Of a DNA stretch of 64,000 nucleotides, positions 2,074 to 34,639 are shown piece after piece (the stretch's first letter is position 1; each line of letters begins with the position of its first letter). The position numbers were made by a program, and so were the translations under genes. Below the pieces are notes generated by a model. The model saw nothing but the letters and a program-made list of their open reading frames with translations, made no database searches and was not told where the DNA came from. Origin of the DNA: a virus (taxonomy: Duplodnaviria; Heunggongvirae; Uroviricota; Caudoviricetes); IMG/VR virus record IMGVR_UViG_3300028887_000069, positions 52,898 to 116,897 of that record. One strand, 5' to 3'.

Positions 2074-2101
2074 TGCAATTGTTCTTTTTTATAAATATAA
2101 T

Positions 2102-2728
2102 TTATTCCTCTTTCTTTTTAAAGGTTTTTCCTGTATATGGTGAGTTTCCATATGTCCGATGTTTGACATTGGTGTCATTCATAGGTTCGTTATCATCATC
2201 AGTGAAACGATTAAACAGGTTGTCTATCCTTGCGTTCATGGACTCGTTCATTGGCTGTTGCATATCACCGCCCATGTCAGGGGCACCCATTCCTTGGTCT
2301 CCTCCATCCATCGGAGGCATTTGCATATCGGCGTTTGCATCATCACCCTGTCCATTCTCGTCATCGTTCACCTTGTTAAGGATTTCCTGAGTATCTTCAG
2401 GATTCAGTCCGTCAACACACTGTTTGACAATCATGCCTGCAACGTATTTGTTTAAGTCAGCGTCGGGCTGTGGCAGATTCTCGCTATACTTTCTCAGGCT
2501 TTGACTCAGTTTGCCTGTCAATTGCTGTATGTATTTCTTGGGGTCGCTTTCTTCGTCAGCCTCAACTCCTGCGTCAAAATTGGTGTCATATGGGTTTTGT
2601 TGTCCACCGTCCATAGGAGGCATCATATTCATATCGTTTTCACTTTCCATTCCGCCACCCATAAAAGAAGAATCCCCCATTGGAGGTGCCATAGGAGCAT
2701 CCATCATAGGAGATTCCATCCCCCCCAT
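2102..2728 (-). CDS. Met/Gly/Pro-rich acidic low-complexity protein, 208 aa
   Basis: ORF with repeated PPMDGG and MGG(M)ES segments; likely disordered. Confidence 0.4.
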   Translation of the reverse strand: MGGMESPMMDAPMAPPMGDSSFMGGGMESENDMNMMPPMDGGQQNPYDTNFDAGVEADEESDPKKYIQQLTGKLSQSLRKYSENLPQPDADLNKYVAGMIVKQCVDGLNPEDTQEILNKVNDDENGQGDDANADMQMPPMDGGDQGMGAPDMGGDMQQPMNESMNARIDNLFNRFTDDDNEPMNDTNVKHRTYGNSPYTGKTFKKKEE

Positions 2729-2757
2729 ATTGGGGACTCTTAAAACCTTGCGCTCAG

Positions 2758-4152
2758 TTAATCTTTTTTTTTAAACCTTTCCATTACAGCATCGGTGAGC
2801 ATATCGATGATTTTCTCACTGAACGGGTCACCGCTATGTCCAATCTGCGTACCGAAAGGCTGTTCACCCTTTGCAGAATCATCGTTCCAGTCACGTCCCC
2901 ATGTGTTGATTTCTCTGTTGTCAGGAGTGGTCATAGGAACTTTCTGATATGCAGGGTGTTTTCCGAAAACATCAAGTTTGTTTTCTCTGATAGGTTCAGC
3001 GTCGAACTCAGGCTCATCGTCGTCTATATCAATTTCAAATTCCCTTTCACCGTCGGTAAGCATTGTAGAATCACCATCAATAGGAAAACCCGTCTCAGGG
3101 TCGAGGTTTTCCTCATTCATTTGCTGATTGCTTTGCTTGTTAGGAAGTTTGTCATCAAACGGAGCGCTGTCACCAGGTTCAGATACATGTTGGTCCATAT
3201 TCTCGGTGTTGTGTACAACATCTTCGTTTACATCCTGATTGCTCTGCTCTTTCGGGAGTTTATCATCATAAGGTGCACTGTCACCGATTTCGGTCCCCTT
3301 AGAGGTATCCATGTAATTCAGTGCATCGTTCCATGCAAGAACCTGTGCCTCGGTCACTCTGATTGTTCTGTGTTTGGATTCGTTCATTCTAACACCGTCG
3401 TCGTTTTTGTGTGAGTTACCCTTTGCACCCGCAACAGCGACACCTTCAGATTCTACTGACTTCACATCTTTGTTGTATGTGTCATCGGCGGTTTTCGGGT
3501 CAGTGTGTTCATTGCCTTTTATTTCTTCTTTATATTCACCCTTATTGGAATAGGTACCGTCAGCCTTTTTGGGGTCTGTCTCGTTTTCTTTCATGTTGTT
3601 AACCTTGTCGGTTGACATTGGTTTCTCAACGAAAGGATTACCTTCTTCCGCATTCTTGTCGGGACTTCCGAGTTCAATAGCCATACCTTCCTTATTTTCA
3701 GAAAGGATATAAGACACGTTATTCGTGATTTGTTTAAAACGGTTGATTTCGTTTCTCATTTCACGAGTTTCGTTGATTTGCCATTCAGCATCCTTAGTTT
3801 CCTTGAAAGGGCTGATTGAAACCTTTGTGGCAGCGTTGGCCTCGTTCAGGGATTTCATTTTCAGACCGAACTGCTTGGATGCAACGGTATAGGTGTCATA
3901 TTCATGCTGTTTCTTATTCATGAAACCACCGATGTAGTCATAGTCCTCGGCAAGAACCTCGGTGTCTTTTTTGGGGGCAACCTTAATATAGAATTTGTTG
4001 TTTTCCTTTACAATACCGTATGTATTGCCGTCAGCACCAACCTGATGGTACTCGACTATTGACTGTCCGCTTTTCTTGGAACTTTCATTGAGACCGTAGT
4101 TCATAAGTTGCTTCATTCTCAAAAGTTCCTCATTGTTAATTTCGTTCGACAT
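2758..4152 (-). CDS. Repeat-containing hypothetical virion-type protein, 464 aa; start taken at the ATG at 4152 rather than the GTG at 4176
   Basis: Internal duplicated segments GDSAPYDDKLPKEQSNQ / GDSAPFDDKLPNKQSNQ and TDPKKADGTYSNK / TDPKTADDTYNKD. N-terminus MSNEINNEELLRMKQLM resembles the shared late N-terminal motif. A TAAATATAAATAT box lies 30 nt upstream. Confidence 0.5.
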   Translation of the reverse strand: MSNEINNEELLRMKQLMNYGLNESSKKSGQSIVEYHQVGADGNTYGIVKENNKFYIKVAPKKDTEVLAEDYDYIGGFMNKKQHEYDTYTVASKQFGLKMKSLNEANAATKVSISPFKETKDAEWQINETREMRNEINRFKQITNNVSYILSENKEGMAIELGSPDKNAEEGNPFVEKPMSTDKVNNMKENETDPKKADGTYSNKGEYKEEIKGNEHTDPKTADDTYNKDVKSVESEGVAVAGAKGNSHKNDDGVRMNESKHRTIRVTEAQVLAWNDALNYMDTSKGTEIGDSAPYDDKLPKEQSNQDVNEDVVHNTENMDQHVSEPGDSAPFDDKLPNKQSNQQMNEENLDPETGFPIDGDSTMLTDGEREFEIDIDDDEPEFDAEPIRENKLDVFGKHPAYQKVPMTTPDNREINTWGRDWNDDSAKGEQPFGTQIGHSGDPFSEKIIDMLTDAVMERFKKKD

Positions 4153-4182
4153 ATTACGTATGTATCTTTTTTGCACTTATTT

Positions 4183-4195
4183 TAAATATAAATAT
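4183..4195 (-). promoter_or_regulatory. Late-type upstream motif (plus-strand TAAATATAAATAT; ATATTTATATTTA on the coding strand), 30 nt 5' of the ATG
   Basis: The same 13-mer or a close variant precedes minus-strand late genes at 2093-2105, 8709-8723, 13887-13901, 25226-25238, 26681-26693, 32969-32980 and 34621-34635. Confidence 0.55.
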
Positions 4196-4204
4196 TACCT
4201 TAAA

Positions 4205-7123
4205 TTATTTTTTACTTTTCTTTTTGTTTTCGTAGACATCATCTTGCCTAAGCAACTCATCTGAAGCGACATCCATTTTAGACAACGGAGGTGTATTGTC
4301 GTCGGTGTCATCGACAGCAGGTTTATTATTTTCCACACTATCTCTCGTTACCGTATATTCACGTGGCATTTCTTTCGGCAATAAACCAAGGCTTCTCTTA
4401 ACTCTGTCAATATTTCCGAGTGCCCATTCCAAATCAGTTTTCCTGTAAACACCTGGTATTACCTGCTTAAATCCAAAACGTTTCATCGCATCATGCAAGG
4501 CTGATGTTGTCACGCTATCATTATTTAGCGCTTTACGGAATCTTCCAAGCCAAGAATTTAGATAAACATTTCCATATCCAGGATTCATCTCTTTCAATTG
4601 AGTTTCATACACAATCACAGTCTTGGATTTGTTTTCATTGACATAATTCCCCGCCGAGATTTGTGTCAAAACCTTTGAGCCACCCTTAATGAACATTGAT
4701 GCCAAGTCACCTCTGTGGTGCCACACGTCAAGGCAACGGTTCACAAGTATAAGTTTTTCACCTACAGACATTGAAGGATTATATTCGTTTAATATATTAC
4801 CCAACGGTTTCAAGCCATAGTCACTTATCGCATCTCTACCATCGGGAGCAACAGCGTAATCATCCCACCCTCGTTCATATAGAAAGTCATAACATGATTC
4901 AAAACTGTAGTCAGGTTCAATACCTTTATTTGTACACCATTGTTCATATTCATCTTCGAACACCTCCCTGAAATCATCTTCAGGAAAATAAGAAGAATGA
5001 CCTGAAATCTCAGTATTAGCTTGGAGTTGAAGACTATTTCTCATAATCAGTTCAACCCATTCGTCAACTATACGCTCAGGGAAACGCATCGCCTCTCCGT
5101 TCTGCATATAATCCTGTAACGCTCTGTTGTATTGTGACGGGTTTATCAAATTCCAATATTGTTTACTTCCCTTTGGTGCATTTTTAAAATCCATCAAAAC
5201 TGTATAAACATCGACATTTTCATAAACATCGGCTATTAAATCATCAATATAACCCTCATTTAGTTTTTCTTTTTTATTTTTAGTCATTGATTTATAGCAA
5301 GTAGCAAGAAGACCGTCACCCTCCAAATCATCATCTTTTTCTGGACACTCATAGTTATCACCATCTAAAGCATATTGGTCTAAAATTTTATCGTACACTT
5401 TAGGTAGGTTCTCTACAATTGTTTTAGCATCATCTTTCACATCGTTGTTCCAAGGGTATAAGAAATCTTCAATATTTTTATTGAGATATCCTATTTTATC
5501 TTTTATACTCTTCTCAAGCCCACTTTTGACTAAATCATCTTTCATGTACCAACCTTTTATTTTTTTAAGTAAAAGAAGTACATTTCCAAGTGCGCTATAT
5601 GCTTCACGGGTTGATTTTGCACTGTCTAATTCTTTTTTATTTACTTCCAAAACCTTTCTAGTTAATTGTGCTTTAAAATCAAGACCATCATCAGATTGTA
5701 ATGGAAGTACACCCCAAGAACCTTCATTTAAAGACATCTGTTTGTCATAGTTGTAGTTTATAATGTCCCAAATCTTCTTTATGTATCCCTCAGCCCTCAA
5801 TATTTTCCAAATGATATTACCACTGCTCATTTCCTTCGCCTTGGTCTTTAACCCCTCACGCCTCATACCTTTTAAGGTGTTGAATATTGACAACATTTTA
5901 TTTGAAAGGGTTTCCACCTTCTTGGCATCATTTTCCTTGGAAATCTGTTTTTCAAGTTTGTCTATCTTGTCAAGATATTTCTCAGCAGTCTGCTTTACAT
6001 ATTCCTTGTTCAATTTGGCATCGGACAAATCCTTCGGTTCTTTAACCCAATCATTTTTCTCGAGTGAATAGACACCGCTTGCCTCCGCAGGTGCATCCAA
6101 ATCCTCAACCGAAAGTTCAACGTTGAATCCATATATCTTAAGTTTCTCGTGGGTGGAGTTCCACTCTGTTTTCTTGGCATCGAAGAAATTCTTGACAAAG
6201 TCGGTCTTTTTGTACACTTTTTTGAAATCCATTATAATATGAATGTCAACATCCGAGTATTTTGTCCAATTGTAGTTGGCTATTGAACCCGTCAGGACAA
6301 TGTCCTCAGGTTTAACCCATCTTATATCAAGGGTCTTCACAAAGTCATCGGCAATGTCAAGCAGACGCATACGGACCTTGGAGTTGAGTTTGTTGTTCAC
6401 CCAAAACTTGGGGTGCAACTGTTCCTTGGGTTCAAACGGCTTGAGTGAAACCTCTTCCTCAATTGTTTCACTCTCATTCATCCTCCTTGCATAAAATTGG
6501 TTATATACCTCATAAGTCAAGCCCGCATCAAGGATGATAATCTGTGCGTCACCGTCACGTTCAGTTAATCCATAGGTGGATAAACGCAACATGTCTCCAA
6601 GAGGAATGTTGTAGTTTGTCATATAGTCCCATATACCTCTAAAGAACCAATTGTCGGGATGTTCCTCCATGCAATATTCGTACATTTCGTCGTCCATTGC
6701 ATAATAAAATGATTTGCGTCCATTGGGGGCATAGGCGTTGAATGTTGCCACAACAAACGATTGGAAATCATCCCAAGACAAATTAAGGACCTTTTTGAAA
6801 TCGCTTTTCTTGGCGGGCAGTACATTTTCCTCTATAATCCACTCATAGTCATCGGAAACACTTTCAACATTGACAACAATGCCATCGTTCTCCCTCGACA
6901 TTTGTGCTTCCACACGATTCTGCGCCTTTCCCTTTTCATTGATGGCAAGTTTCAAAACCAATTCGTCAGTCAGTTCAAATATGATACGTGAACTTCCCTT
7001 ACCAAAGGAAGGACCTAAATGTTCTTTACAGTATTTCAGCCTTGCAGCAAATGTTTTGCAGTTTTGAAATTCACCGAGGTTGAAATCACCGCCCAATGCT
7101 TCGTTTATAACTTTACTTTCCAT
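4205..7123 (-). CDS. Large multidomain protein, 972 aa, with a Pol-beta-type nucleotidyltransferase signature; possibly a kinase-like N-terminal domain
   Basis: Motif LTGSIANYNWTKYSDVDIHII fits hG[GS]x9-13Dh[DE]h. N-terminal FGKGSSRIIFEL...VLKLA...IILDAGL loosely resembles a kinase glycine loop, catalytic Lys and DFG-like triad. Confidence 0.5.
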   Translation of the reverse strand: MESKVINEALGGDFNLGEFQNCKTFAARLKYCKEHLGPSFGKGSSRIIFELTDELVLKLAINEKGKAQNRVEAQMSRENDGIVVNVESVSDDYEWIIEENVLPAKKSDFKKVLNLSWDDFQSFVVATFNAYAPNGRKSFYYAMDDEMYEYCMEEHPDNWFFRGIWDYMTNYNIPLGDMLRLSTYGLTERDGDAQIIILDAGLTYEVYNQFYARRMNESETIEEEVSLKPFEPKEQLHPKFWVNNKLNSKVRMRLLDIADDFVKTLDIRWVKPEDIVLTGSIANYNWTKYSDVDIHIIMDFKKVYKKTDFVKNFFDAKKTEWNSTHEKLKIYGFNVELSVEDLDAPAEASGVYSLEKNDWVKEPKDLSDAKLNKEYVKQTAEKYLDKIDKLEKQISKENDAKKVETLSNKMLSIFNTLKGMRREGLKTKAKEMSSGNIIWKILRAEGYIKKIWDIINYNYDKQMSLNEGSWGVLPLQSDDGLDFKAQLTRKVLEVNKKELDSAKSTREAYSALGNVLLLLKKIKGWYMKDDLVKSGLEKSIKDKIGYLNKNIEDFLYPWNNDVKDDAKTIVENLPKVYDKILDQYALDGDNYECPEKDDDLEGDGLLATCYKSMTKNKKEKLNEGYIDDLIADVYENVDVYTVLMDFKNAPKGSKQYWNLINPSQYNRALQDYMQNGEAMRFPERIVDEWVELIMRNSLQLQANTEISGHSSYFPEDDFREVFEDEYEQWCTNKGIEPDYSFESCYDFLYERGWDDYAVAPDGRDAISDYGLKPLGNILNEYNPSMSVGEKLILVNRCLDVWHHRGDLASMFIKGGSKVLTQISAGNYVNENKSKTVIVYETQLKEMNPGYGNVYLNSWLGRFRKALNNDSVTTSALHDAMKRFGFKQVIPGVYRKTDLEWALGNIDRVKRSLGLLPKEMPREYTVTRDSVENNKPAVDDTDDNTPPLSKMDVASDELLRQDDVYENKKKSKK

Positions 7124-7150
7124 ACAATTTAATATAATATGTTTTGACTA

Positions 7151-8689
7151 TTAAATCCACCTTAATTGTTTTTCAAGCCTGTAGTTCTGATATATCTGTT
7201 CATAGTTCAGGTCACAGGAATGAAAGCGGAACACCTTGAAATAGCCCTCAAGGGAACCGCCAAACTCCTGTTCCAAGAACAGCAAATCCTCAGGTACGGT
7301 ATCCAAACCATAGACGACATCGCACAGCCCCTGTGTTCCACCACCAATTGAAATATTGTACGGCACACCCTCCTGTTTTTCGTATACATCATTCAACACC
7401 CTGAGTAAAAGCGTCGGTATCGGTTTCGAATACAGTACAATTTTACCGTTGACATAGAAAATGAGTCTCATCAAGTCCACCTTCTTGTTGTAAGGTATCG
7501 AATCCTTCGGCAAAAACGGAATGACCCTTACGGCAACATGGTTCCATTCACCAACCTTTATTCTCTCCTCATACGACCACTCCTCCTCTATCGCATATCC
7601 CTTCTCGGATTCGCAGTCCTGAACCATGTACTTGTACCCAATCTTTCCATCCACTTTCACTTGGAATGCCAAGGCGTTTCTGAACAGGTCCTTCAGAATG
7701 TCATACTGCTTTGTCTTGTCTGTTTTCAGGTCACCTATCGTTTCAACCGTGTATCCGTCCTTGCTTCTATTCACATAGAGATAATAGTTCTCACCAAAGT
7801 TTTTCTCGTCAAACAATATTCTTGCATACTCGTCGTCGGTGTGTTCATCGCTTGCCAAAAGCCCGTTCTTGCTTCGGTTGTATGTCACAAATTTGTTGTT
7901 TATATCAACTACCGTGTCATAACTGTCAAGACGCAGCCCGCTGTCGGTGGTGAGGTCGGTCGTAAAAACGTTACTTCCGCTTCCCGAATCGTCACTGTTA
8001 TAGTATTTCCACCACTTGTTCTCCGCCCTTGTACCGATATAGAAGAATATTCCCTTGTTCTCGGGATAGACATCGTTAAGCGTAGGTAACTTCTCTTCAG
8101 AACCGCTTGGTACTGAACCGTCAAAAACAGGCTTGAAGACAAATTCCATTGTCCATCCGTTGCCGAGTTTGCTTGGCAATACCCTGTATTCACACCCCGT
8201 GTCGGTTTGGAAAAACCCCTGATAGAATCCCCCGTTCAGTTTTGATATGTTTATGTTGTTCTCCTTTACAATCTCATTCCCGTATGAATATATCTTGTTA
8301 TTGCCCGCAACCCTGTTCAAATACAGTTTCATGTCGTCGACACCAGTCTCGAGAACACTGTTCTGATAGATATCGTCGAACTCCTCCTGCGTTATGGTAT
8401 CCTTGTCATAGGTAAGCAAACCGTTATCCACACCCGTCAAGCCGATATTGGTAAGCGAGACACCTTTATTGATTGCATTCTCCCATTGGTATGTGTCCAT
8501 CGACACCAAACCGTTTTCAAGCAAGCACTCATCCATTGCCGTGTCAATGTATGAAGCCAAACACTCATCCTGAAACATGTCGGCAAGATTGCCCCCGTAC
8601 TGTTTCAAGTACAGGTGCATGTCCCAATAGTCAGCCTTGTTGACCTTGAATTTGAATACCTTCCTGTTATGGTTTAGAATATTACTCAT
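7151..8689 (-). CDS. Putative tail fibre or receptor-binding protein, 512 aa, with a C-terminal ConA/LamG-like jelly-roll
   Basis: C-terminal EWNHVAVRV...LIFYVNGKIV pattern is typical of LamG/ConA lectin folds; position and size also fit. Confidence 0.4.
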   Translation of the reverse strand: MSNILNHNRKVFKFKVNKADYWDMHLYLKQYGGNLADMFQDECLASYIDTAMDECLLENGLVSMDTYQWENAINKGVSLTNIGLTGVDNGLLTYDKDTITQEEFDDIYQNSVLETGVDDMKLYLNRVAGNNKIYSYGNEIVKENNINISKLNGGFYQGFFQTDTGCEYRVLPSKLGNGWTMEFVFKPVFDGSVPSGSEEKLPTLNDVYPENKGIFFYIGTRAENKWWKYYNSDDSGSGSNVFTTDLTTDSGLRLDSYDTVVDINNKFVTYNRSKNGLLASDEHTDDEYARILFDEKNFGENYYLYVNRSKDGYTVETIGDLKTDKTKQYDILKDLFRNALAFQVKVDGKIGYKYMVQDCESEKGYAIEEEWSYEERIKVGEWNHVAVRVIPFLPKDSIPYNKKVDLMRLIFYVNGKIVLYSKPIPTLLLRVLNDVYEKQEGVPYNISIGGGTQGLCDVVYGLDTVPEDLLFLEQEFGGSLEGYFKVFRFHSCDLNYEQIYQNYRLEKQLRWI

Positions 8690-8820
8690 CCGTTATCAAT
8701 GTATATATTATAAATATACAATCATATGAATAAGGAAACCGCCACAAGTAAAGGAGGTGGTTCGACTCTGACAGCTTCCTCGCAATCTTGGGCGGTCTTA
8801 TTATTAAATATCATGCAACA

Positions 8821-8853
8821 TTTGAAAAATGTCACATAAAAATAGTATATTTG
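8821..8853 (+). promoter_or_regulatory. Middle-type promoter: TTTG-N21-(aaaaatag)TAtaTTTG
   Basis: The box aaaaatagtatatttg recurs at 13927-13942, at 31520-31535 on the minus strand before ligA, and in degenerate form at 23545-23560. Confidence 0.55.
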
Positions 8854-8879
8854 TTCTGTATTATAATAATATCTTGATA

Positions 8880-9683: not shown

Positions 9684-9702
9684 AAAAACACATAAATACA
9701 AA

Positions 9703-11384: not shown

Positions 11385-13864
11385 TTATCACTGCTTTCAT
11401 TATAAATATCTGAATATTTGATTTTGTATCCTTTCTTAGGTGTATTCTCCAAAAGGTAGTCAGTCAACTTGTCCTCCAATTGGCGACGCAATTCCCTGAG
11501 TATCGGTCTTGCACCGTATTCAGACTCTTTCTTGACCTCCTTGAAGATATTCTTCGGAAGTTCGCCCTCAAAGATTGACTCATCAAAAGCATAGCCGAGT
11601 TTTTTTACACGTTCCTCGATTTTCCCTATCTCTATCTTTATGATGGTCTTGAGGTTATCGTCAGTCAGTTTGTTCATGAACATTATCTCGTCAATCCTGT
11701 TTATGAACTCGGGTGGAAGTTTTTTCTTGATTGTGGACAATATAATGTCCCTATCCCTTACATCCTCGTTTTTGTCGCCAAAACCAATCAAAGGTTTCTT
11801 GTTGGCGGCTTCCTTTGTCCCGATATTGGATGTCATCAATATGATAACGTTCCTGAAATCAACGGTGTTTCCCTTGTTGTCTGTCAGTCTTCCCTCGTCG
11901 AATACCTGAAGGAACGTATTGTATATCTCCTCATTGGCTTTCTCTATCTCGTCAAGCAGAAGCACACAGTGGTTGTTTTTCTTTATTGCCTCAGTCAACA
12001 GACCACCCTCATCATAACCGACGTAGCCCGCCGAACTTCCTATCAGTTTGTTCACACTGATTTTGTCAGCATACTCACTCATGTCAAGCCTGACCATGTT
12101 CTTCTCACTACCGAAAACCTCCTCGGCGACTTTCTTTGCCAAGAAAGTCTTTCCGCATCCGCTTGTTCCTGACATCAGGCATACCACAGGCTTGTCGGGA
12201 TTGCCTAATCCAACCCTCTGCCGTCTGACCGCCTTGCACAGAATCTCAACCGCCTCATCCTGTCCGATAACCTTTTCCTTAAGACGACTGTCAATGTTCT
12301 TAAGTTTCTCGAGTTCGGTCTTGCCAATCTCGCCCACAGGGATGTCTGTTTTCTTTGATACGCATTCGTACAGTGACTTGAGCGTTACAGGCAGAGGTTT
12401 CTTTTCACTCAACATCTTCTTCTCATAAAGGTTTATCTCGCTCTTCTTCTTGACCTCGTCGGCACAGAGTTCGTCGTACTTTTCATACGATTCCGAATCC
12501 GACTTTGTCTTGATTTCATCTATCTTGTTCTGTATCTCTATCAGTTCAGATACGAGTTTGTCAAGATTATCGTCGTTTTTGACCTTCATCAACTCAGTGG
12601 CCGCTGCAGTGTCAAGTATGTCACTTACGGTATAGATATCAGCATTGCCGAAGAAACGTTGCGACAGGTTTATTGCGGTGGTTATCACATCGTCGGAATA
12701 TGTCACAAAGTGGTATTTCTCATACTTGGCGGCAACCTTCTTTATGATGTCGAATTTGTCTTTCCCATCCTTGTCAGTCAAGACAATCTTCTCAAAACGC
12801 CTTACAAGGTTTTTGTTTGGCTCAATGTATTTCGAATAGTTGTCATGCGTTGTGGTACATATGAACATTATGTTCTTGTTGTTCAGTATGTCCTCCAACA
12901 TGACGTCAGTTGCAACCTCAGTGAATTTGCTGTTTGGCGAAAGGATTGAGTTTATGTCGTCAATGAAAAAAATGTACCTGCCGCTTTTGGCTGCGGTTTC
13001 GATGATGTTTTGGTACTTTGACTCGAAACCACCCCTGAAGCCCGTGCCCGATGTCAACGATATGAAATCCATCTTCATGAGTTTCTTGTCCTTGAAATAC
13101 TTGGGCACGTCACCGTCCACAATCATGTTGGCGATGTGCTGCACAGTACAGGTCTTTCCGCAACCCGACTCTCCCACCACTATCACGTTGTTCTTGTCTC
13201 TTTTCAATAGTGCGGTGAAAATTTTGTCAATGATTTCACCGTTTCCGATTGCCTTGTCCAACTTGCCGCTGATTGCCATCTTGTTCAAGTCAATCAGGTT
13301 TTTCTCAACATCGGTGTTTTCGGGGTATTTCCCACTTGCGGGTTGTGTCTTGGGTGTATTCTCGGTTTCCTTTTTCTGTTTGCTTTTGGGCTTGCGTTTC
13401 TCCTTCGTCTGTGTATCGGCAACGGTGTCGGCATTTTCAGCAATGGTGCTTTCCATCACACTTTCAATCTGTGAGGTTGTTATTCCGTATTTCTTGAAAA
13501 CCTTATACGAGTTCTCGTCAAGCAGTAACAGAATGTCCAGAAACAGGCAGGAATTTATCACGTCACCTTTCTCGTTGCATTTCTCAAGAACCTCGTCGTA
13601 TATCTTATCGTATTTCGGTTCTGCACCTGACATCGGGGTTGTGTTTGAGAGTTCGGTATAACAGTCGTTTTCCAGACTGTTCAGGCTTTCGGTGAAAAAA
13701 AGTTTCTCCAACGCCTTGTAAGCAAGACAGTCTTTATTGGAGAGAACTGAATATATGTAATAATATGAACTTATCTTCTCGGTGGGAAACTGCGACACAA
13801 GGTCTTTCTTTATATAGTTGAATACAACCTTTGCCTCGTTTGTGAACGTATATTTTTCTGCCAT
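11381..13864 (-). CDS. Clp-family double-AAA+ ATPase (ClpB/ClpC-like), 827 aa
   Basis: Clp_N-like N-domain; D1 Walker A GESGCGKT; coiled-coil linker; D2 VIGQDEAVEIL...GTSGCGKT. Confidence 0.75.
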   Translation of the reverse strand: MAEKYTFTNEAKVVFNYIKKDLVSQFPTEKISSYYYIYSVLSNKDCLAYKALEKLFFTESLNSLENDCYTELSNTTPMSGAEPKYDKIYDEVLEKCNEKGDVINSCLFLDILLLLDENSYKVFKKYGITTSQIESVMESTIAENADTVADTQTKEKRKPKSKQKKETENTPKTQPASGKYPENTDVEKNLIDLNKMAISGKLDKAIGNGEIIDKIFTALLKRDKNNVIVVGESGCGKTCTVQHIANMIVDGDVPKYFKDKKLMKMDFISLTSGTGFRGGFESKYQNIIETAAKSGRYIFFIDDINSILSPNSKFTEVATDVMLEDILNNKNIMFICTTTHDNYSKYIEPNKNLVRRFEKIVLTDKDGKDKFDIIKKVAAKYEKYHFVTYSDDVITTAINLSQRFFGNADIYTVSDILDTAAATELMKVKNDDNLDKLVSELIEIQNKIDEIKTKSDSESYEKYDELCADEVKKKSEINLYEKKMLSEKKPLPVTLKSLYECVSKKTDIPVGEIGKTELEKLKNIDSRLKEKVIGQDEAVEILCKAVRRQRVGLGNPDKPVVCLMSGTSGCGKTFLAKKVAEEVFGSEKNMVRLDMSEYADKISVNKLIGSSAGYVGYDEGGLLTEAIKKNNHCVLLLDEIEKANEEIYNTFLQVFDEGRLTDNKGNTVDFRNVIILMTSNIGTKEAANKKPLIGFGDKNEDVRDRDIILSTIKKKLPPEFINRIDEIMFMNKLTDDNLKTIIKIEIGKIEERVKKLGYAFDESIFEGELPKNIFKEVKKESEYGARPILRELRRQLEDKLTDYLLENTPKKGYKIKYSDIYNESSDK

Positions 13865-13886
13865 TTCTTAACTTGTCTATGATATT

Positions 13887-13901
13887 AAATATAAAAATAT
13901 T
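13887..13901 (-). promoter_or_regulatory. Late-type motif variant before the Clp ATPase gene
   Basis: taaatataaaaatat. Confidence 0.4.
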
Positions 13902-13914: not shown

Positions 13915-13942
13915 AAGACGTTTCAAAAAAATAGTATATTTG
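13915..13942 (+). promoter_or_regulatory. Middle-type promoter box aaaaatagTAtaTTTG before the KTSC gene
   Basis: Same conserved box as at 8838-8853. Confidence 0.5.
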
Positions 13943-14494: not shown

Positions 14495-14516
14495 TATTTA
14501 CAACAAAATATAATCT

Positions 14517-14903: not shown

Positions 14904-14904
14904 T

Positions 14905-15132: not shown

Positions 15133-15133
15133 A

Positions 15134-15879: not shown

Positions 15880-16071
15880 ACCTATTCAAAAGTAGTCAAA
15901 AGTGTCTAAAACTAACTCGTATAAATATATTGTAGTTTGACACTATTTATATAATGGAAACTGAAGCAGAGAGCAGTTCCAAAATAACAGTAAAGATATA
16001 TAGAGGTTTTATCCTTGTCGGTTCTCTCTGCAACTATAACCGCAAGTTTAATACCTCTTTTTTATTGGAAT

Positions 16072-17712: not shown

Positions 17713-17804
17713 TTCTTCGGATTAACGTTTTTTAGGAAAATAAATTTGGCAGTAAGGGAAAAAGGCGTTAATTTTGCAAACGTTAAACTTAAAAAAGAAA
17801 AAGA

Positions 17805-18821
17805 ATGAAAGGTCCAATGTTTTTTAGCGACAAGGCACCCGTATTTAAAAACCGTGCCTTGGAGATTTGGTTGCGGGACATACAGAAATACAAGGTACTG
17901 TCCGTGCAAGAGGAAGAGGATGTGATACGCAGGTACAAGGAAGGGGACCGTTCTGCTTTGGACATACTAATCCAGAGCAACCAACGGTTTGTGTACAAAA
18001 TGGCGAAAACGTTTTCCAAGGATGCCGACACGATACTTGAATTGATATCGGAAGGCAACTTGGCGTTATTCGACGCAATTGACAGGTTCGACCTCACAAG
18101 AGGATACAAGTTCATGTCATACGCCGTATGGTTCATAAAGCGCAATATGCTTGAATATTTTTACCATAACGGTTTGGTAAACCATTACGTCTCCCGAGAC
18201 ATAATGTGCAGGGCAAACCGTATCAAACATAAATGGTTCCAGGAAAACGGGTATGACATACCGTTGGATATACTCAGGGATAAGGTTAACGAAGAACAGC
18301 CAATGCGGACTGTCCGTGACAAGATGTTCTTTGCCGACATAACCATCAAGTACGACGGTGACTACTGTGAGACCAACGAAGCCGAGGAATGCAGCCTGAT
18401 AAACACGGTTCGACCATCCATGAACAAATGCGAGGAGATTTTCGAGCGTGAGGATGAAATGAAGCGGGTCGAGTATTATCTTGACGCTGTCTGCAACAAT
18501 GACGCCGAGAAAAACATAATGATTGACAAATACGGACTGTTCGGGAACGAGCAGTTGGGTGAGGCAAGCCTATGTATGAAATATGGAATCGAAGCGTGGT
18601 ATATAGGTTATCTCAACCTTAAGATAATGAGGGCTATGAATCAGTTCGCCAAGACAGGAACCGTTCCAAAGAAACGCAAGACAAAGGTCGGTTCAAGGAT
18701 TGAAGAAAACCTTAAAGCCGGAAAGAAAGGTGTTTCCGTTTCCGCAAAAGCCCAAGTGAGTGTAAAGAAGAAAGAAAAAACCACTCCAAAACGTAAAACA
18801 AAATCGGCTTGTGGCTCTTAA
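17805..18821 (+). CDS. Sigma-70-family factor with a lysine-rich C-terminal tail
   Basis: Region 2 ALDILIQSNQRFVYKMAKTF...GNLALFDAIDRFDLTRGYKFMSYAVWFIKRNM; a region-4-like HTH; KKRKTK...KKKEKTTPKRKTKS tail. A TAatTTTG promoter lies upstream. Confidence 0.7.
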   Translation: MKGPMFFSDKAPVFKNRALEIWLRDIQKYKVLSVQEEEDVIRRYKEGDRSALDILIQSNQRFVYKMAKTFSKDADTILELISEGNLALFDAIDRFDLTRGYKFMSYAVWFIKRNMLEYFYHNGLVNHYVSRDIMCRANRIKHKWFQENGYDIPLDILRDKVNEEQPMRTVRDKMFFADITIKYDGDYCETNEAEECSLINTVRPSMNKCEEIFEREDEMKRVEYYLDAVCNNDAEKNIMIDKYGLFGNEQLGEASLCMKYGIEAWYIGYLNLKIMRAMNQFAKTGTVPKKRKTKVGSRIEENLKAGKKGVSVSAKAQVSVKKKEKTTPKRKTKSACGS

Positions 18822-18989
18822 TATCCCTGTCGTTCAGGATATGTGACAAAATCTCTTTATGGTCTCTGATTGGTAAGGTGTAGGCGTTTTCAATTGTTAC
18901 CTTACCTTTTTCAATCTTATAGGTGATGAGTCTCATATACCATAAATATCCAGAAAAAGTCTTTAATCTTTTTTATTAAAAAAGTACGT

Positions 18990-29255: not shown

Positions 29256-29591
29256 CTAAATCAGACAGACAAGAATCTGCGCCACATGCAACGCCTGGTC
29301 AATGTAAAGGCTCGTAATGTCGGAACACTTGGGGAATTTCTTGTACAGACCCCTGCACTTCCAATAGTCGATAAGGTAATGACCAACCACAAGCATAATC
29401 ACCTTCCACCAAGCGAATATGCCGATGAACGCAAGCGCAAGCGAGAGTCCAAAACCCCATATTGCTGAATGCACAAACAGGATGTAGTTGTACTTGCTCT
29501 TCCACTTGGCAAGAAACGTGCCCTGCAGCGGATAATCCAACACCAAATTGCAGAAATAAAGCACCATGAAACTAAGCAATATCGTCTCCAT
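29256..29591 (-). CDS. Integral membrane protein, 111 aa
   Basis: Three hydrophobic segments. Confidence 0.4.
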   Translation of the reverse strand: METILLSFMVLYFCNLVLDYPLQGTFLAKWKSKYNYILFVHSAIWGFGLSLALAFIGIFAWWKVIMLVVGHYLIDYWKCRGLYKKFPKCSDITSLYIDQALHVAQILVCLI

Positions 29592-31515
29592 ATGTCTTGA
29601 TTGTTTTGTTTAACTTCTTTGCATCCTTCATTTTCGAACTGCCGCTTTCAAGGTCATCTGTTATAAGGAAATCACACTCCTTAATCGAAACCTCCTCCAC
29701 AGTATACCCGAGTTTTGAAATATGCTCCTTGTATTCATTCTTTGTCTTGTAGCCGTAAGCCTTCGGTGAACCTGTAAGTGTCAACTTCAATAACTTACCA
29801 CTACTCTGTTCGGTATGGAAAATCACTTTCCTTCCACCAAATTCCTCTATCGACCTGACAACCGCCATCACGATATTGTACTTGTCCTCGCCTTCATCCC
29901 ATCCCGAGACAACGCTTTTCTCCAATCCATAGAAACTGTATTCACATCCCGACAGTTTCTTGCCAATCTCCTTGACAGTCTTCCCGTCATTGGATATGCC
30001 TTCATATGACAGCATTGAAATAACCTGCTCTATAGTTACCTCTCCAATACCGAACACCCCTTCCACAAAATTGTCCCATACCTTCCCTTCCAATCCCCCT
30101 TCGGAGAGCTTCGCCCTCAATTCACTCTCACTGACGGTCAGATAATCCCACGGGTGTTTGTACACACAACGGTACAACGACTCCATCATCACCTCTCCAA
30201 GACCGAATATCTTGAGTGCCGACATTCCGTTTATGAAACGCTGTATACGGACACCCTCACACTCGTCGTTGATGCACTTGATGAATTTTCCGTTCTCCAC
30301 ATAGAGTCCACTCCCACAATACGGGCACTTGAACTCGTTCAAGATGTCAAACGGCTTCTCACATTGGTTGACCACATTCAATATCTGCGGAATGATGTCC
30401 CCGCTTTTCACTATCGACACTATGGAACCCACGTTGAGGTTGTTCTTCTCTATGAAACTGTAGTTGTACGCACTCGCCTTGGACACCATTGTATCGTCAA
30501 GCGCCACAGGCTCCAATAACGCCACAGGAGTGAACACTCCCGTTTTGCCCATGCTCATCTCAAACCCCTTTACGGTTGTCACACAATCCTCAGGCTTGAA
30601 CTTCACGGCCACCGCCCACAACGGATGGTGCTCCACCTCGCCAAGCACGGAACGGTAACGCTGTTCAACCTTGAACACCATACCGTCAACGCGGTACGGG
30701 CTTTCCTCATACTTGTAGTTCTCATACATCTCAAACAGTTCCACGAAATGCTTGTCAAAACCATTGTTTGTAACCGCAAACGTTGTCTCAACACGATGCA
30801 ACTGTGAATAGTTTTTAAATCCCCAATCCCCTATTTCGGTTATGTCATGGTACACTAACTCGGCACCGTTCATGGAACGCATCTCCACGGGTACAAGGTC
30901 TATCTCCCTCATCTGTCCCTCAGTGGAATCATCCGAGTTCAACACACCCGCCACATAGTTGCGCTCGTTGCTGAACCTGTCTCCGTACTTCTCCGCAAAC
31001 ACATCCTTGCGTATCACAGCCTCGCACCTGACCTCCACAATGTCGTGCACCGCAGGTATGGTCTGTGGATATTGAGACCTGTCTATCTTCGGCAGGTAGT
31101 CACGCCCGTACTCCCCGTCACCACGGGATAATGCATACGTGATATGCCCGTCAATGTACACAAGGTTTATTGCGTTTCCGTCAAGTTTCTGTCCAACCTC
31201 CACCTTCACCGCATACTCCCCGCACTTGGAAATCGCGCCCTTCATCCACTTGGCGAATTCCTCCACGGGTGCCTCGCCCGTGTTCTTGTCAGCCTGTATC
31301 TTCTCAAGCGACCTCATGGGGGTCGGATGCTTCACCTTCGCCTTCCTGTCCCAATACCCCACATTGTTCACCACAGACGATTTCTGTGCCTTCAACTTCT
31401 CCTCAAGGGCATCGAACTCGGCGTCGGTCATTATCGGCTGCTCGTTGTAGTAGGCTTCCTTCGCCTCCGCATAAAGCAACTCGTCACCTTTCAAATTTTC
31501 TTTAATTGTTTCCAT
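29572..31515 (-). CDS. ligA: NAD-dependent DNA ligase (LigA)
   Basis: Ia domain YYNEQPIMTDAEFDALEEKL; adenylation KLDG box; zinc finger CPYCGSGL...C; C-terminal BRCT-like segment. Start taken at the internal ATG preceded by a TAtaTTTG box. Confidence 0.8.
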   Translation of the reverse strand: METIKENLKGDELLYAEAKEAYYNEQPIMTDAEFDALEEKLKAQKSSVVNNVGYWDRKAKVKHPTPMRSLEKIQADKNTGEAPVEEFAKWMKGAISKCGEYAVKVEVGQKLDGNAINLVYIDGHITYALSRGDGEYGRDYLPKIDRSQYPQTIPAVHDIVEVRCEAVIRKDVFAEKYGDRFSNERNYVAGVLNSDDSTEGQMREIDLVPVEMRSMNGAELVYHDITEIGDWGFKNYSQLHRVETTFAVTNNGFDKHFVELFEMYENYKYEESPYRVDGMVFKVEQRYRSVLGEVEHHPLWAVAVKFKPEDCVTTVKGFEMSMGKTGVFTPVALLEPVALDDTMVSKASAYNYSFIEKNNLNVGSIVSIVKSGDIIPQILNVVNQCEKPFDILNEFKCPYCGSGLYVENGKFIKCINDECEGVRIQRFINGMSALKIFGLGEVMMESLYRCVYKHPWDYLTVSESELRAKLSEGGLEGKVWDNFVEGVFGIGEVTIEQVISMLSYEGISNDGKTVKEIGKKLSGCEYSFYGLEKSVVSGWDEGEDKYNIVMAVVRSIEEFGGRKVIFHTEQSSGKLLKLTLTGSPKAYGYKTKNEYKEHISKLGYTVEEVSIKECDFLITDDLESGSSKMKDAKKLNKTIKTYGDDIA

Positions 31516-31519
31516 AACC

Positions 31520-31560
31520 AACGCAAATATACTAAAAAAATCCCGTATCGCTACGGGATT
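31520..31560 (-). promoter_or_regulatory. Middle-type promoter on the minus strand, immediately 5' of ligA; near-leaderless
   Basis: Reverse complement reads tttttttagTAtaTTTGcgttggttATG. Confidence 0.5.
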
Positions 31561-31575
31561 CTGTATTTTTTCCTC
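31530..31575 (-). terminator. Terminator after the SPFH gene on the minus strand
   Basis: aatcccgta-tcgc-tacgggatt with a T-tract on the minus strand. Confidence 0.5.
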
Positions 31576-31583
31576 AATCTTTT

Positions 31584-32375
31584 TTATTTTCCGAAATTGA
31601 TGAACGGCACACTGTTGCCCATCATATAGGTCGGTAATTGTCCAGACCATTTTTGGACAGCTTCGTATTCCACAAGTTTCTGATTGCGTTCCAATGCAGT
31701 CGCCTTGATTCTCATAGCCTCAGCCTCGGCTTCCGCCTTAATCTTGGTCTGCTTGGCCTGTTCCTCAACCTGTATGGTAACGTTCTTAGCCTTCAACGCA
31801 TTCTGCTCGGCGACCTGCTTCTCCTTGATTGCGGTCTCGAACGCATCGTCAAAGTCTATCTCGGTAATCTGGAATTGGATATTGATGAAATAGTTGCTGT
31901 CCAACACCTGACGCAATCCACTCTCGATGTCACGGCGAACGTTATCCCTGTTCGCCACAATCTCCGTGGCGGCATAGTCACCGAATATGTCCTTCATCGT
32001 GCTTCTGATAAACGGCACCACAATCCTGTTATGGTAATCCTCGCCAACGTTCTTCATAAGGTCGGCAACATTCTCCTTCACAAGGTCATAGTTGATAGTG
32101 TAGTCCACAACCGCAGTCTGCACATCCTTCGTGTAGGAGTTCTCCTGTCCGTCGAACTTCTTCTGCTGCACGTTCACCTTCTTTATCGTCTGCACGAACG
32201 GAATCTTAAGATGCGGTCCGTCAGGAATCGACGACTCGTGGATTTTGCCGAAAGTACTCAGCACCCCACGCTGTGTCGACTTGACAGTGTAGAACGAACA
32301 GGCAATGATGATGATTGCCAAAACACCGGCTACCGAAAGCCAGATAATCTCTTTCATGGTAAATGTCTTTTTCAT
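31584..32375 (-). CDS. SPFH/band-7 (prohibitin/HflC-like) membrane protein
   Basis: N-terminal TM segment followed by an SPFH-like core and an Ala/Glu-rich coiled coil. Confidence 0.7.
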   Translation of the reverse strand: MKKTFTMKEIIWLSVAGVLAIIIIACSFYTVKSTQRGVLSTFGKIHESSIPDGPHLKIPFVQTIKKVNVQQKKFDGQENSYTKDVQTAVVDYTINYDLVKENVADLMKNVGEDYHNRIVVPFIRSTMKDIFGDYAATEIVANRDNVRRDIESGLRQVLDSNYFINIQFQITEIDFDDAFETAIKEKQVAEQNALKAKNVTIQVEEQAKQTKIKAEAEAEAMRIKATALERNQKLVEYEAVQKWSGQLPTYMMGNSVPFINFGK

Positions 32376-32406
32376 GTTTCCAAATTTTTTAATTAATACT
32401 ATATTT

Positions 32407-32781
32407 TCATTTTCCTATATTCCAAACCAACCTGTATCCATACTCCTCACAATACTTCTCCAACACACCTCTGTAAAACTTCAACCCTTCCTCAGTGAAC
32501 TCCGATACGGGGAAGTCAAGACTCGACCCATATACAAGCAACACCTTTTCCGCACTGTTACCGCCATATAAGGTGTAGAACGCACCAAACGGCATCTGCC
32601 TCTTTGTGGTTGTCAATTCCATCGCCCTCTCAAAGTCCATCTCGGGATTATGCATGACCATGAAAAGCCCGCTGTGCGAATTGCACTTGTTCTCCTTGTT
32701 GTAGAAATACAACTCGCCGCCTCCTCCCTTCAGGGGAAAAATGATGAATCTGTAACAGGTAATCTCGGGTGTTGTTATCAT
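32407..32781 (-). CDS. Hypothetical protein, 124 aa
   Basis: ORF only. Confidence 0.4.
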   Translation of the reverse strand: MITTPEITCYRFIIFPLKGGGGELYFYNKENKCNSHSGLFMVMHNPEMDFERAMELTTTKRQMPFGAFYTLYGGNSAEKVLLVYGSSLDFPVSEFTEEGLKFYRGVLEKYCEEYGYRLVWNIGK

Positions 32782-32936
32782 ATTTGCCTTAACATTTCGT
32801 CAACCTGCTTCAACTTGCGCTTGGTCCTCCTAAGTTTCTTCTTGTCTTCCTTTATTTGAACCTCAGTGTCATGCTTCTCGGTCAACAGTTCCTTTTTGAC
32901 ACTCCTTAGTTTCTTCTTCATGTTGTCGTCTTCCAT
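32778..32936 (-). CDS. Small basic coiled-coil protein, 52 aa (manual call)
   Basis: ATGA overlap with the downstream gene; a late-type box lies upstream. Confidence 0.25.
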   Translation of the reverse strand: MEDDNMKKKLRSVKKELLTEKHDTEVQIKEDKKKLRRTKRKLKQVDEMLRQI

Positions 32937-33072
32937 ATCGCTTTACAGTTAAGACATATTATTTCCCTTAACTATAAATATCCGACAACCTGTCTTCGGA
33001 GTTTCTTTCACATTTGCAAAGGTAATGCCTTTTTCCGAATGGACCAAATCTTTTTTGTTAAAGAATGTTAAT

Positions 33073-33426
33073 TCACTCGTATATGTAGTCGATTATCCGC
33101 CTGAACGCCTCGGCATCATCCCCATCCAATTCCCATGGACGCTTGCCCACACTCAATATGTCGGGCATCTCTACATCCTTCGTGACGAACGCCACCACAT
33201 AGCACGACTCGGGATTCTTGAAACAACTCTCATGCACACAGAACCCAATATCCTCACCCTTCCCGTAATAGGTCTCCCCAACCTTCTCAAACTCCTCCTC
33301 TTTCCCGTAATAAGGATTCTTTTCCCATTTCACTATCTCTGCGGCATACCCACCGTTATACCCCATCCCCTCATGGATGACCTTCAACTCGACGTCACCG
33401 AACCTGAACCTTTTCAACTCTTTCAT
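33073..33426 (-). CDS. Hypothetical protein, 117 aa
   Basis: ORF only. Confidence 0.4.
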   Translation of the reverse strand: MKELKRFRFGDVELKVIHEGMGYNGGYAAEIVKWEKNPYYGKEEEFEKVGETYYGKGEDIGFCVHESCFKNPESCYVVAFVTKDVEMPDILSVGKRPWELDGDDAEAFRRIIDYIYE

Positions 33427-33549
33427 GACTTATCCATTTTTACGGTAAAACTCATTATACCATTTCTCGGCAACTTTCTTTTCAATAATCTGTTTAATTT
33501 CTTTCTCCATATGTCTTTTATGTTTGTTTTTGCATCACAAATATACTAT

Positions 33550-33590
33550 AAAAAAACAAAAAAAGCGGGTCTCCGAAAAAAAACCCGCCT
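33550..33590 (-). terminator. Terminator on the minus strand
   Basis: gcgggt...acccgc hairpin followed by a T-run on the minus strand. Confidence 0.5.
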
Positions 33591-33619
33591 TTCATACTAT
33601 GGGAAAAACTAAAACATCC

Positions 33620-34057
33620 TCATTTCTGCTTCTTCACTATCCTGAAGTTCTTCTCCGCACCCTTAGGCTCTATCAACTGCAGACGGTACTCACCGCACTG
33701 ATAACTCGACATGTCAACGTAACCGACACCACCGTTGATGTAGTTCTTCGTCACAGCCTGGTCATTGGCGTCATACAGATAGTAGGTTATACCCGATACA
33801 CTGCCGACACTGACCTTAACCTTGTCGGTACGACCCTCCTGCTTCACGGTGGCCGCATTGTCCATAACAGTCACGTTCGCAATGCTCATCTCGGTGACTG
33901 TGTAACTGTAGGTCTTCACGGCAGTACCGCATATGCGGTCACCCCTCTGAACAGACACCCTGCTGTTGTTGCTGACAGACACCTGCCTCACGGGACGCTG
34001 CCCCATCACCACGCACACGGCGCAGACGAATAAAACAATACTTAAGATTTTCTTCAT
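33620..34057 (-). CDS. Secreted beta-rich protein, 145 aa
   Basis: Signal peptide MKKILSIVLFVCAVCVVMGQ. Confidence 0.45.
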   Translation of the reverse strand: MKKILSIVLFVCAVCVVMGQRPVRQVSVSNNSRVSVQRGDRICGTAVKTYSYTVTEMSIANVTVMDNAATVKQEGRTDKVKVSVGSVSGITYYLYDANDQAVTKNYINGGVGYVDMSSYQCGEYRLQLIEPKGAEKNFRIVKKQK

Positions 34058-34156
34058 AACTCTTCCTTTGTTTTTTACCTTATTATTATTCTCTACCCTT
34101 TAGTGCATCTTATAAGCAATTTATTTTACTTTCACCTGACTGTAAATGGACAATTA

Positions 34157-34591
34157 CTATAGGTCACCGTACGGAATGCATCTCCAATCAAAGTTTTCGT
34201 CGTGAAAGTCGGCTCTTTCATCATCTGTCATGTTTTTGGTAGCCTCATCATCCATGTCCTCCCATTTGCGGGCTATGTTCTGAGCCTGCTTGTGTTTTCT
34301 GTTAAAGAATGTGTATAGGGTGTCAAACGCATCAAACGCCTTCATCATTATCTTGCTGTCAGAGCTATAGCCACCACCACATCTATTCCCACCTTCGTTC
34401 CACCAACCACCTGTTTGAAATGCATTGAGGGCTTCCTCAATTACACGCAACGCATCCTGCACCTCTTCGAAGTTATCCAACCTATCCGCACGATAATAGG
34501 CATGCGACATCGTCTTGTAATCTATCTCGTCAATGACTTCCCTTATCAACCCCTTCAACTCACGCTCGTTCAACTTTATTGTCCGTTTCAT
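34157..34591 (-). CDS. Hypothetical protein, 144 aa, with shared N-terminal motif MKRTIKLNERELKGLI
   Basis: A late-type box lies upstream; no SD. Confidence 0.45.
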   Translation of the reverse strand: MKRTIKLNERELKGLIREVIDEIDYKTMSHAYYRADRLDNFEEVQDALRVIEEALNAFQTGGWWNEGGNRCGGGYSSDSKIMMKAFDAFDTLYTFFNRKHKQAQNIARKWEDMDDEATKNMTDDERADFHDENFDWRCIPYGDL

Positions 34592-34639
34592 AATTTATGT
34601 TTTGTTTTTATATCTTATTTAAGATATAAATAGTATGGA

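Follow-up and report, generated by a model that had tools for sequence, protein, structure and literature searches.

In a 64,000-nucleotide (nt) stretch of a Caudoviricetes phage genome (hereafter the window; IMG/VR record IMGVR_UViG_3300028887_000069, positions 52,898 to 116,897), we identified a 9-nt motif, (A/C)TATTTAT(A/T), that lies in the sense orientation at a constrained distance upstream of genes outside the early gene array. The motif is conserved in related phages, is associated with structural genes such as those for the portal and the major capsid protein, and is excluded from the early array. We consider it probable that the motif is a late-class promoter which is read through a phage-specified factor. 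An earlier note on this DNA had proposed a distinct upstream motif on late genes; the motif is indeed distinct, being constrained in orientation and position on non-early genes. The window comes from a large phage genome in a JGI metagenome (contig Ga0310696_10000226, 95 kb), and proteins identical to those of the window also occur on contigs of 0.2-1 Mb. A megablast of 25 kb against known phages returned no close DNA match. The standard genetic code fits the translations and an alternative code is unneeded. The phage belongs to a T4-like jumbo-phage lineage of Bacteroidota, which has a gp20 portal, a gp21-type protease and a gp23-type capsid protein.

The core shared by the motif copies comprises 9 nt, with 12 matches in the window against 2.6 expected, a number reached in none of 100 shuffles. 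The 13-nt consensus of the earlier note (ATATTTATATTTA) proved too long: it is exact at three sites only (4183, 25226 and 26681), and it has five matches at one mismatch or fewer against 0.23 expected. Ten of the 13 exact copies of the 8-mer ATATTTAT are sense-oriented within the -8 to -70 windows of genes, 17-52 nt from start codons. This placement corresponds to a binomial p of ~2e-11 against a uniform background, a figure that is optimistic, intergenic DNA being AT-rich. The same-composition permutation control is the fairer test for such DNA, and here ATATTTAT ranked first of 56 8-mers for sense upstream copies, the best non-overlapping competitor having three. Counted on either strand, TATAAATA has 13 matches in the window against 2.1 expected; in gene orientation it is not enriched, and 11 of the 13 copies point away from genes.

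The eight sites listed earlier all exist within a few bases of the positions given, in intergenic DNA upstream of minus-strand genes, and the list had missed the sites marked as new in Table 1. From the 3' end of the motif to the ATG we measured 17-52 nt in the window, rather than the 16-30 nt first claimed, while the identical leader ends '..tacgtaatATG' are present as described at 4183 and 26681. The motif stands upstream of 9 of 39 genes outside the small-gene array and of none of the 62 genes within it (Fisher p = 1e-4). As had been noted, the genes behind the motif lack a Shine-Dalgarno (SD) sequence: SD-like sequence was found at 0/9.

Alignment of 36 sites from across the clade was anchored on TATTTAT, so the core is invariant by construction. 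Next to it, A or C occupies position -1 in 35/36 sites and A or T position +7 in 33/36, positions +11 to +16 are A-rich, and 35 of the 36 sites lie 17-37 nt from the ATG. There was no information content upstream of position -2 in these sites, and hence no conservation of a -35 element or of a -33 TTTG. A generic sigma-70 promoter scan did not exceed shuffled expectation. In the window, the ligA-operon site is the only one with a -33 TTTG nearby, and this TTTG belongs to a separate tandem early-type promoter at 33017-33048, 35 nt upstream of the site at 32973.

The motif persists where the surrounding DNA does not. Orthologues of the 474-amino-acid (aa) gene at 23774-25198, with identities of 81%, 63% and 48% (L003, L006 and L008), keep ATATTTAT ~20-25 nt from the ATG, while the rest of the upstream DNA has diverged. 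In IMG/VR relatives with portals 52-73% identical, the motif precedes the portal gene and most neighbouring genes; one of these relatives is a 372-kb contig that also holds an orthologue of the phage sigma factor described below. The locus L077 has seven sense copies and no antisense copy. By portal, the nearest phage in culture is Flavobacterium phage vB_FspM_immuto, at 35% identity. In immuto the box lies 11-31 nt before the genes for terL, portal, tail sheath, tail completion, baseplate hub, tape measure and tail fibre, among others; it is concentrated in the structural third of the genome and is again the top permutation in this phage. By BLAST, immuto and the window clade have only terL, portal, protease and capsid protein in common. 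The motif was not shown by Tenacibaculum phage PTm1 (L073, 1-50000) or by Prevotella phage Lak-B5, to which one window protein has its best tblastn match; therefore, the box is lineage-specific and not general to Bacteroidota phages. Many gene starts in PTm1 are preceded by ATACATA- or ACACATA-like strings, which may be a promoter motif of its own. Counts of 8-mers over the whole of 58 sigma-containing IMG/VR loci were uninformative, as these are mostly AT-rich phages of other clades.

The earlier note had assigned the motif to "late and structural" genes. This holds for the portal gene, the capsid gene and the terL operon. In the 10 kb past the left window edge, terL, a T4-type portal, an S77 prohead protease and a gp23-type major capsid protein follow 624-1745 in the same orientation, and ATATTTATA(AT) stands 17-31 nt before the ATG of the portal gene, the gene after it, two further genes and the capsid gene. 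It does not hold for the ligA/UvrD operon or for the degenerate copy at the ClpB-like gene, and none of the window proteins encoded behind the motif was annotated as structural by PHROG or Pfam scans. The motif is missing before internal operon genes such as terL and 624-1745. Strong terminator hairpins lie immediately upstream of it in L067, at 17808-17835 and at 16685-16712. Behind the latter hairpin come two copies of the motif, ~20-30 nt from an ATG within the protease gene that may be the true start of the protease.

From these features we infer promoter function, register, timing and reader as follows. The motif (A/C)TATTTAT(A/T) would act as a promoter with one element only, a -10/-7-like box that lacks a -35 partner, and would mark late, post-early units. 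TATTTATW would span approximately -12 to -5, the register of the host sigma-A box TAnnTTTG, from which it differs at positions 6 and 8. Transcription would start ~5 nt downstream of the box and give SD-less 5' leaders of ~11-31 nt and occasionally leaderless mRNAs. The host core RNA polymerase is proposed to read the box only with a phage-specified specificity subunit of the sigma-region-2 type. For this phage the leading candidate is the sigma factor encoded at 17805-18821, a role that we rate as somewhat less likely than not; made from a host-type promoter, it would give a cascade from early (host sigma-A) to late transcription. Some units, for example ligA/UvrD, would combine early, "middle" and late signals.

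A promoter fits better than an RNA-level signal because of the upstream terminator hairpins and the back-to-back divergent copies at 26685 and 26722. The motif does lie near the start codons of SD-less genes and its downstream flank is A-rich, as could suit a translation enhancer in the 5' leader, a processing site for SD-less mRNAs or a mark of gene boundaries. However, a motif-ATG distance of 5 to 52 nt is poor for ribosome positioning, terminator hairpins often precede the motif, as expected of a new transcription unit, copies stand on opposite strands of one divergent intergenic region, and internal operon genes go without it. Such an RNA-level role is therefore very unlikely.

The register of the putative promoter is suggested by the closest spacings. 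At 18941-18949 the sequence reads TATTTAT-GGTAT-ATG, and immuto has three more cases with exactly the same spacing; placing the 8-mer at -12 to -5 puts the A of the ATG at +1 in these leaderless-looking cases. The 4-5 nt spacing at 18941-18949 accordingly suggests a leaderless mRNA. The small gene concerned (18709-18936, minus strand) is conserved, with 75 aa here and 101-102 aa in L008 and L009, where its homologues carry the same motif 20-24 nt upstream; these homologues fix the N-terminus of 18709-18936. The flavobacterial sigma-A -7 box spans -12 to -5 and the median host leader is 24 nt (PMC9723704), a value with which the implied leaders of 11-31 nt agree. The late box thus appears best described as a -7 box in the host register, with TT at positions 3-4, A for T at position 6 and A or T for G at position 8. 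Two other readings were rejected. A one-base variant of the host box in another register, TAnnTTTA, fits only 6/8 sites, and the relatives favour the TATTTAT register. About half of the sites read TATT+TATAAT, that is, with the canonical TATAAT embedded, but an embedded TATAWT as the real -10 is incompatible with the cases that look leaderless.

This likeness to the host box raises the question of whether host sigma-A itself reads the motif as a weak variant of its -7 box, possibly with a phage activator or through a late loss of competition, and with no phage sigma. The register and the length equal those of the host box, four of the six specified positions of TAnnTTTG are matched, and immuto carries the box with no detectable sigma of its own. 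Nevertheless, position 6 is always A (36/36) where the host has T, and the hallmark G at position 8 occurs in only 3/36 sites. In the early and "middle" classes of this phage the TTTG is perfect, so the departure in the late box looks selected. Moreover, the motif resembles none of the six promoter classes that have been mapped in Flavobacterium psychrophilum (PMC9723704). We regard reading by host sigma-A as improbable.

As the earlier note stated, the open reading frame (ORF) at 17805-18821 encodes a phage sigma factor; it is a full-length sigma-70-family protein. It matches Pfam Sigma70_r2 (E = 3.9e-14) and PHROG 351 and is ~40% identical to short RpoD/SigA proteins. Along regions 1.2 through 4.2, the profile of its clade aligns to solved chains of SigA, RpoD and RpoS (E = 6e-33), while the Pfam region-4 models gave no match to the ORF. 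In the region 2.3/2.4 alignment the aromatic residues for strand opening are kept, and R and L stand at the positions of Q437 and T440 (Q437R, T440L), the residues of E. coli sigma-70 that contact -12. A host-type promoter precedes the sigma gene, and the orthologues in L008 and L009 likewise have host-type boxes (TATCTTTG); thus, the sigma can be made early. The small gene 18709-18936 is convergent with the sigma gene, the two overlapping by ~110 nt at the Lys-rich 3' end of the latter. Late transcription from the small gene's own late-type box could therefore extend antisense into the sigma gene. No second sigma-like protein was found in the window. As the only sigma-family protein found there, this sigma is a plausible reader of the motif, an assignment that immuto weakens and that we hold as tentative.

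Several observations weigh against the proposed late promoter or against this sigma as its reader. The motif also heads non-structural units, namely the ligA/UvrD operon and, as a weak copy, the ClpB-like gene. The AT-richness of intergenic DNA inflates simple chance estimates of motif enrichment. The sigma orthologues share only 24-38% identity and differ in region 2.4, in contrast to the invariant motif. The sigma also has a domain resembling region 4, for which the motif offers no -35 partner. No RpoD-like sigma was found in immuto by phmmer or by profile search with filters off, despite the identical box, so parsimony favours a shared reader other than the sigma at 17805-18821. Finally, more than 200 kb of the genome lies outside the sequence seen, where genes for gp55- and gp33-like factors may reside.

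In T4-like phages the usual factor is a minimal one of the gp55 type. A late promoter of the T4 paradigm could accordingly be read by a highly diverged factor of this type, with a gp33-type co-activator and a sliding clamp, all encoded outside the window, leaving the RpoD-like sigma to serve another class such as the "middle" one. The head module is of the T4 type (gp20 portal, S77 protease, gp23 capsid protein), and the motif 8-mer TATTTATA, likewise a lone -10-like element, matches T4 TATAAATA at 6/8 positions, including the A bases aligned to T4 -12 and -8. Group 2 jumbo phages with gp23-type capsids have no RNA polymerase of their own and encode sigma factors, minimal or RpoD-like, together with a gp33 orthologue, which is general in that group (Iyer et al., PMC7824862). 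The motif of immuto without any RpoD-like sigma also favours such a factor. In addition, one AT-rich relative (L010, a 393-kb IMG/VR contig) has two sigma paralogues within 10 kb (9944-10828 and 18242-18988), a pair that suggests a multi-sigma cascade in part of the clade and hints at cascades with several factors. On the other hand, searches with T4 gp55 (phmmer), an 18-sequence gp55 hidden Markov model and hhalign found no gp55-like protein in the window, the flank, five relatives' loci or the whole of immuto, a weak negative given the poor sensitivity of the searches and the large part of the genome unseen; among 20 function-unknown immuto proteins scanned with PHROG there was no sigma-like family. 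An E = 3e-4 hit of the gp55 search to an off-frame ORF inside a long gene (22686-22877) was judged to be chance. Furthermore, Iyer et al. present the minimal and RpoD-like sigmas as alternatives and do not state that both are always present (PMC7824862). Overall, we consider a gp55-type reader unlikely, though far from negligible.

Returning to a phage-specified reader of the late box in general, we hypothesize that a full-length RpoD-derived sigma took over the role of gp55/gp33 and reads a -35-less box two bases off the host -7 (TAttTAtA versus TAnnTTTG); alternatively, the box of immuto would point to an unrecognised late specificity factor common to T4-like Bacteroidota phages. This hypothesis is possible but somewhat doubtful. 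If an RpoD-derived sigma did replace gp55/gp33, the early-to-late switch would amount to a minimal re-tuning of sigma region 2 specificity.

The late motif is one of three real sequence classes in the window, as the earlier note had proposed; the timing of each class is presumed from gene content. The early class, gTTAAAAATTTG-N-cTTACCTTTGCAnACGTAA followed by AAAGAAAGGAG, has ~45 copies of the form TTTG-N17-22-TAnnTTTG, in keeping with the earlier description. Outside the small-gene array, early promoters precede the sigma gene, 25327 and two minus-strand genes at 35 kb. The Bacteroidota sigma-A consensus is -33 TTTG / -7 TAnnTTTG, the -7 box spanning -12 to -5 (PMC9723704); because the array and several other genes fit this consensus, the host is taken to be a member of the Bacteroidota. 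The early and late classes are mutually exclusive per gene, bar one tandem case. The "middle" class, AAAATAGTATATTTG, is a host-type -7 box with an upstream extension, usually without the -33 element, and was recovered at the positions first reported, including the one just before ligA. It precedes the Dam methylase / deoxynucleoside monophosphate (dNMP) kinase unit, the KTSC gene, ligA and a 117-aa gene, is kept in L003, L006, L008 and L009, including before the KTSC orthologue, and has variants before two head-module genes. Both the early and the "middle" class retain the TTTG of the host -7 box. The ligA/UvrD operon combines a tandem early-type and late-type pair with ligA's own "middle" box; in T4, the presence of several promoter classes at once is familiar from DNA-metabolism genes. 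The strong SD AAAGAAAGGAG claimed for the small-gene array was found in 47/62 of its genes, with SD-like sequence in 3/39 others, although the host phylum is generally without SD-led initiation (PMC6847099, PMC9723704). SD use is thus specific to one gene class within a single genome.

Table 1. Late-type motif copies, "middle" boxes and other features in window numbering ("new" marks sites that the earlier note did not list)
Feature	Coordinates	Strand	Remarks
Large terminase, 5' part (Terminase_6N)	1..595	-	Without own motif; co-oriented with the unit starting at 2090
Motif ATATTTATA	2090..2098	-	17 nt before ATG of 1759-2073; heads operon 1759-2073 / 624-1745 / terL (595-1)
Motif ATATTTATA(TTTAAAATAAG)	4187..4195	-	35 nt before ATG of 2758-4152
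Motif ATATTTATA(AT)	8709..8717	-	20 nt before ATG of 7151-8689
Motif ATATTTATA(AT)	11401..11409	-	17 nt before ATG of 11004-11384; inside 3' end of ClpB-like gene; new
Degenerate copy TTTTTATATTTAAT	13884..13897	-	Before ClpB-like gene 11381-13864; one-mismatch variant TTTTTAT; weakest of the earlier-listed sites
Inverted motif pair (TATAAATA/TATTTATA)	15920..15951	- and +	ATATTTATA (-) at 15920-15928, CTATTTATA (+) at 15943-15951; upstream of TnpB/Cas12f-like ORF; new
Motif ATATTTATG	18941..18949	-	4 nt (5 from the TATTTAT 7-mer) before ATG at 18936 of small gene 18709-18936; new
Two overlapping copies ATATTTATATTTATA	25224..25238	-	26 and 32 nt before ATG of 23774-25198
Motif ATATTTATA(TTTAAGAATAAG)	26685..26693	-	35 nt before ATG of 26171-26650
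Divergent motif ATATTTATT(ATTAAAATAAG)	26722..26730	+	32 nt before ATG of 26762-27013; new
Motif ATATTTATA	32973..32981	-	Heads operon 32778-32936 / 32407-32781 / Band_7 / ligA / DUF3307 / UvrD
Two copies, CTATTTATA and ATATTTATG	34625-34633, 34643-34651	-	Before 34157-34591; 34643 copy new
"Middle" box AATAGTATATTTG	8841..8853	+	Host-type -7 box with upstream AAAATAG extension; Dam-methylase / dNMP-kinase unit
"Middle" box AATAGTATATTTG	13930..13942	+	Before KTSC gene 13964-14494; L003 orthologue keeps AGTAGTATATTTG
"Middle" box TTAGTATATTTG (TAGTATATTTG)	31524..31535	-	Just before ligA start at 31515; hairpin and T-run precede the box
"Middle" box variant TATAGTATATTTG	33538..33550	-	Before 33073-33426
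Phage sigma-70-family factor	17805..18821	+	Regions 1.2 to 4.2, Lys-rich tail; candidate motif reader
Host-type promoter of sigma gene, TTTG-N20-TAATTTTG	17745..17776	+	
Minus-strand gene blocks	1-8689, 11004-13864, 23774-35548	-	
Plus-strand gene blocks	8829-11011, 13964-23130	+	
Small-gene array	35858..64000	+	~60 small genes; ~45 early host-type promoters gTTAAAAATTTG-N-cTTACCTTTGCAnACGTAA; Shine-Dalgarno AAAGAAAGGAG; no sense-upstream late-type motif
Promoter-like cassettes	39382, 41252, 44262, 49121, 53596, 55497, 57842, 62437	+	
Promoter-like cassettes	51019, 47027, 42114, 40541, 36758, 35692	-	

Among known systems, the T4 late promoter is a single -10-like element without a -35 (PMC7892883). 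The T4 box TATAAATA, recognised by gp55 together with gp33 and the gp45 clamp, is likewise a single element of 8-9 bp, and the gene context is the same here (portal, capsid and packaging genes, tail genes in immuto, and a head of the gp20/gp21/gp23 type). As in T4, the box is excluded from early genes, which use host-type promoters. In contrast, the T4 consensus, at approximately -13 to -6 on the non-template strand, differs from the core here, TATTTATW; TATTTATA is the reverse complement of the T4 box, yet would act in the gene's own orientation. Unlike T4, this phage revealed no gp55 orthologue, nor one of gp33 or gp45, at which no search was aimed; the only sigma-like protein seen is a full-length RpoD-like sigma, and the host belongs to the Bacteroidota, with TAnnTTTG as the -10 equivalent. 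With Bacteroidota sigma-A promoters, the late box shares T1, A2, T5 and T7, and would share the register of -12 to -5 and short SD-less leaders; it differs in A at position 6, A or T at position 8, a fixed TT at positions 3-4, A or C at -13 and the lack of a -33 element, and, unlike those promoters, it never precedes the early genes of the phage.

Phage sigma cascades (SPO1 gp28 and then gp33/34, and the sigmas of group 2 jumbo phages) likewise pair a phage sigma-70-family protein, made from a host-type promoter, with distinct promoter classes. The promoters of SPO1 have two elements, -35 and -10, whereas the candidate target here has one, and the link between sigma and motif is putative. The extended -10 of sigma-70 (TGnTATAAT) also functions without a -35, and about half of the sites here embed TATAAT; however, there is no TG here, and what stays constant is the upstream TATTTAT rather than the embedded TATAAT. 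No description of the box or of the promoter classes in this phage lineage was found in the searchable literature of one library, nor anything relevant on promoters of megaphages or of immuto. In concept, the box belongs with the single-element late promoters of T4-like phages and with phage sigma cascades, of which it would be a further variant.

There is hardly any work on the transcription programmes of phages that infect Bacteroidota, gut and rumen jumbo phages among them; the hosts of these phages have an unusual sigma-A and no Shine-Dalgarno. Combined with the early and "middle" classes, the 9-nt late box offers a practical aid for annotating operons and temporal classes in metagenomic jumbo-phage contigs, and the late box could supply orthogonal promoter parts for Bacteroidota engineering. 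The box is also present in a cultured system, Flavobacterium sp. LMO8 with vB_FspM_immuto, and is thus directly testable. The T4 late-promoter paradigm would extend to another box and possibly to another kind of reader.

Several further features of the window deserve mention. The inverted motif pair at 15920-15951 may belong to an insertion sequence (IS) element. The TnpB/Cas12f-like ORF behind it (16015-17712, plus strand) has a Cas12f1-like_TNB domain and is located between the KTSC operon and the sigma gene; the relative L006 has an IS605-type OrfB and a Y1 transposase elsewhere. The 474-aa protein (23774-25198, minus strand) has more than 480 homologues, many of them longer with an extra PF20274 or PF18823 domain, and its homologues sit on large contigs near sigma, UvrD and ligA genes; a single-protein IMG/VR scan with it gave no result. 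Between two convergent genes, 640 nt (23131-23773) contain no called gene and carry a variant of the "middle" box, AATAGTATATTTA, at 23541-23553 (plus strand). A perfect palindrome, AGACACGATTGTGTC(T/C), occurs in eight copies in the small-gene array (42060, 43415, 50330, 56588, 58560, 60872, 62119 and 63727), mostly in leaders or intergenic DNA, with some copies within ORFs; a role as an operator or as an RNA hairpin is conceivable.

Rfam over the entire window and a tRNA scan gave no matches, and this includes a set of ~15 promoter-like cassettes, tGTTAAAAATTTGC..CCAAA(A/T)AAAGTG-TTATATTTG-CAAATGTTAAAGGGG, which lie on both strands between 35692 and 62437 with no ORF after them. Downstream of the cassettes are 50-70 nt of G-rich sequence, and those on the minus strand also have a hairpin such as CCCCACGTTTCCCAACGTGAGG. 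Some of the cassettes are antisense to the small-gene array, and these ORF-less elements could be small RNAs or decoy promoters.

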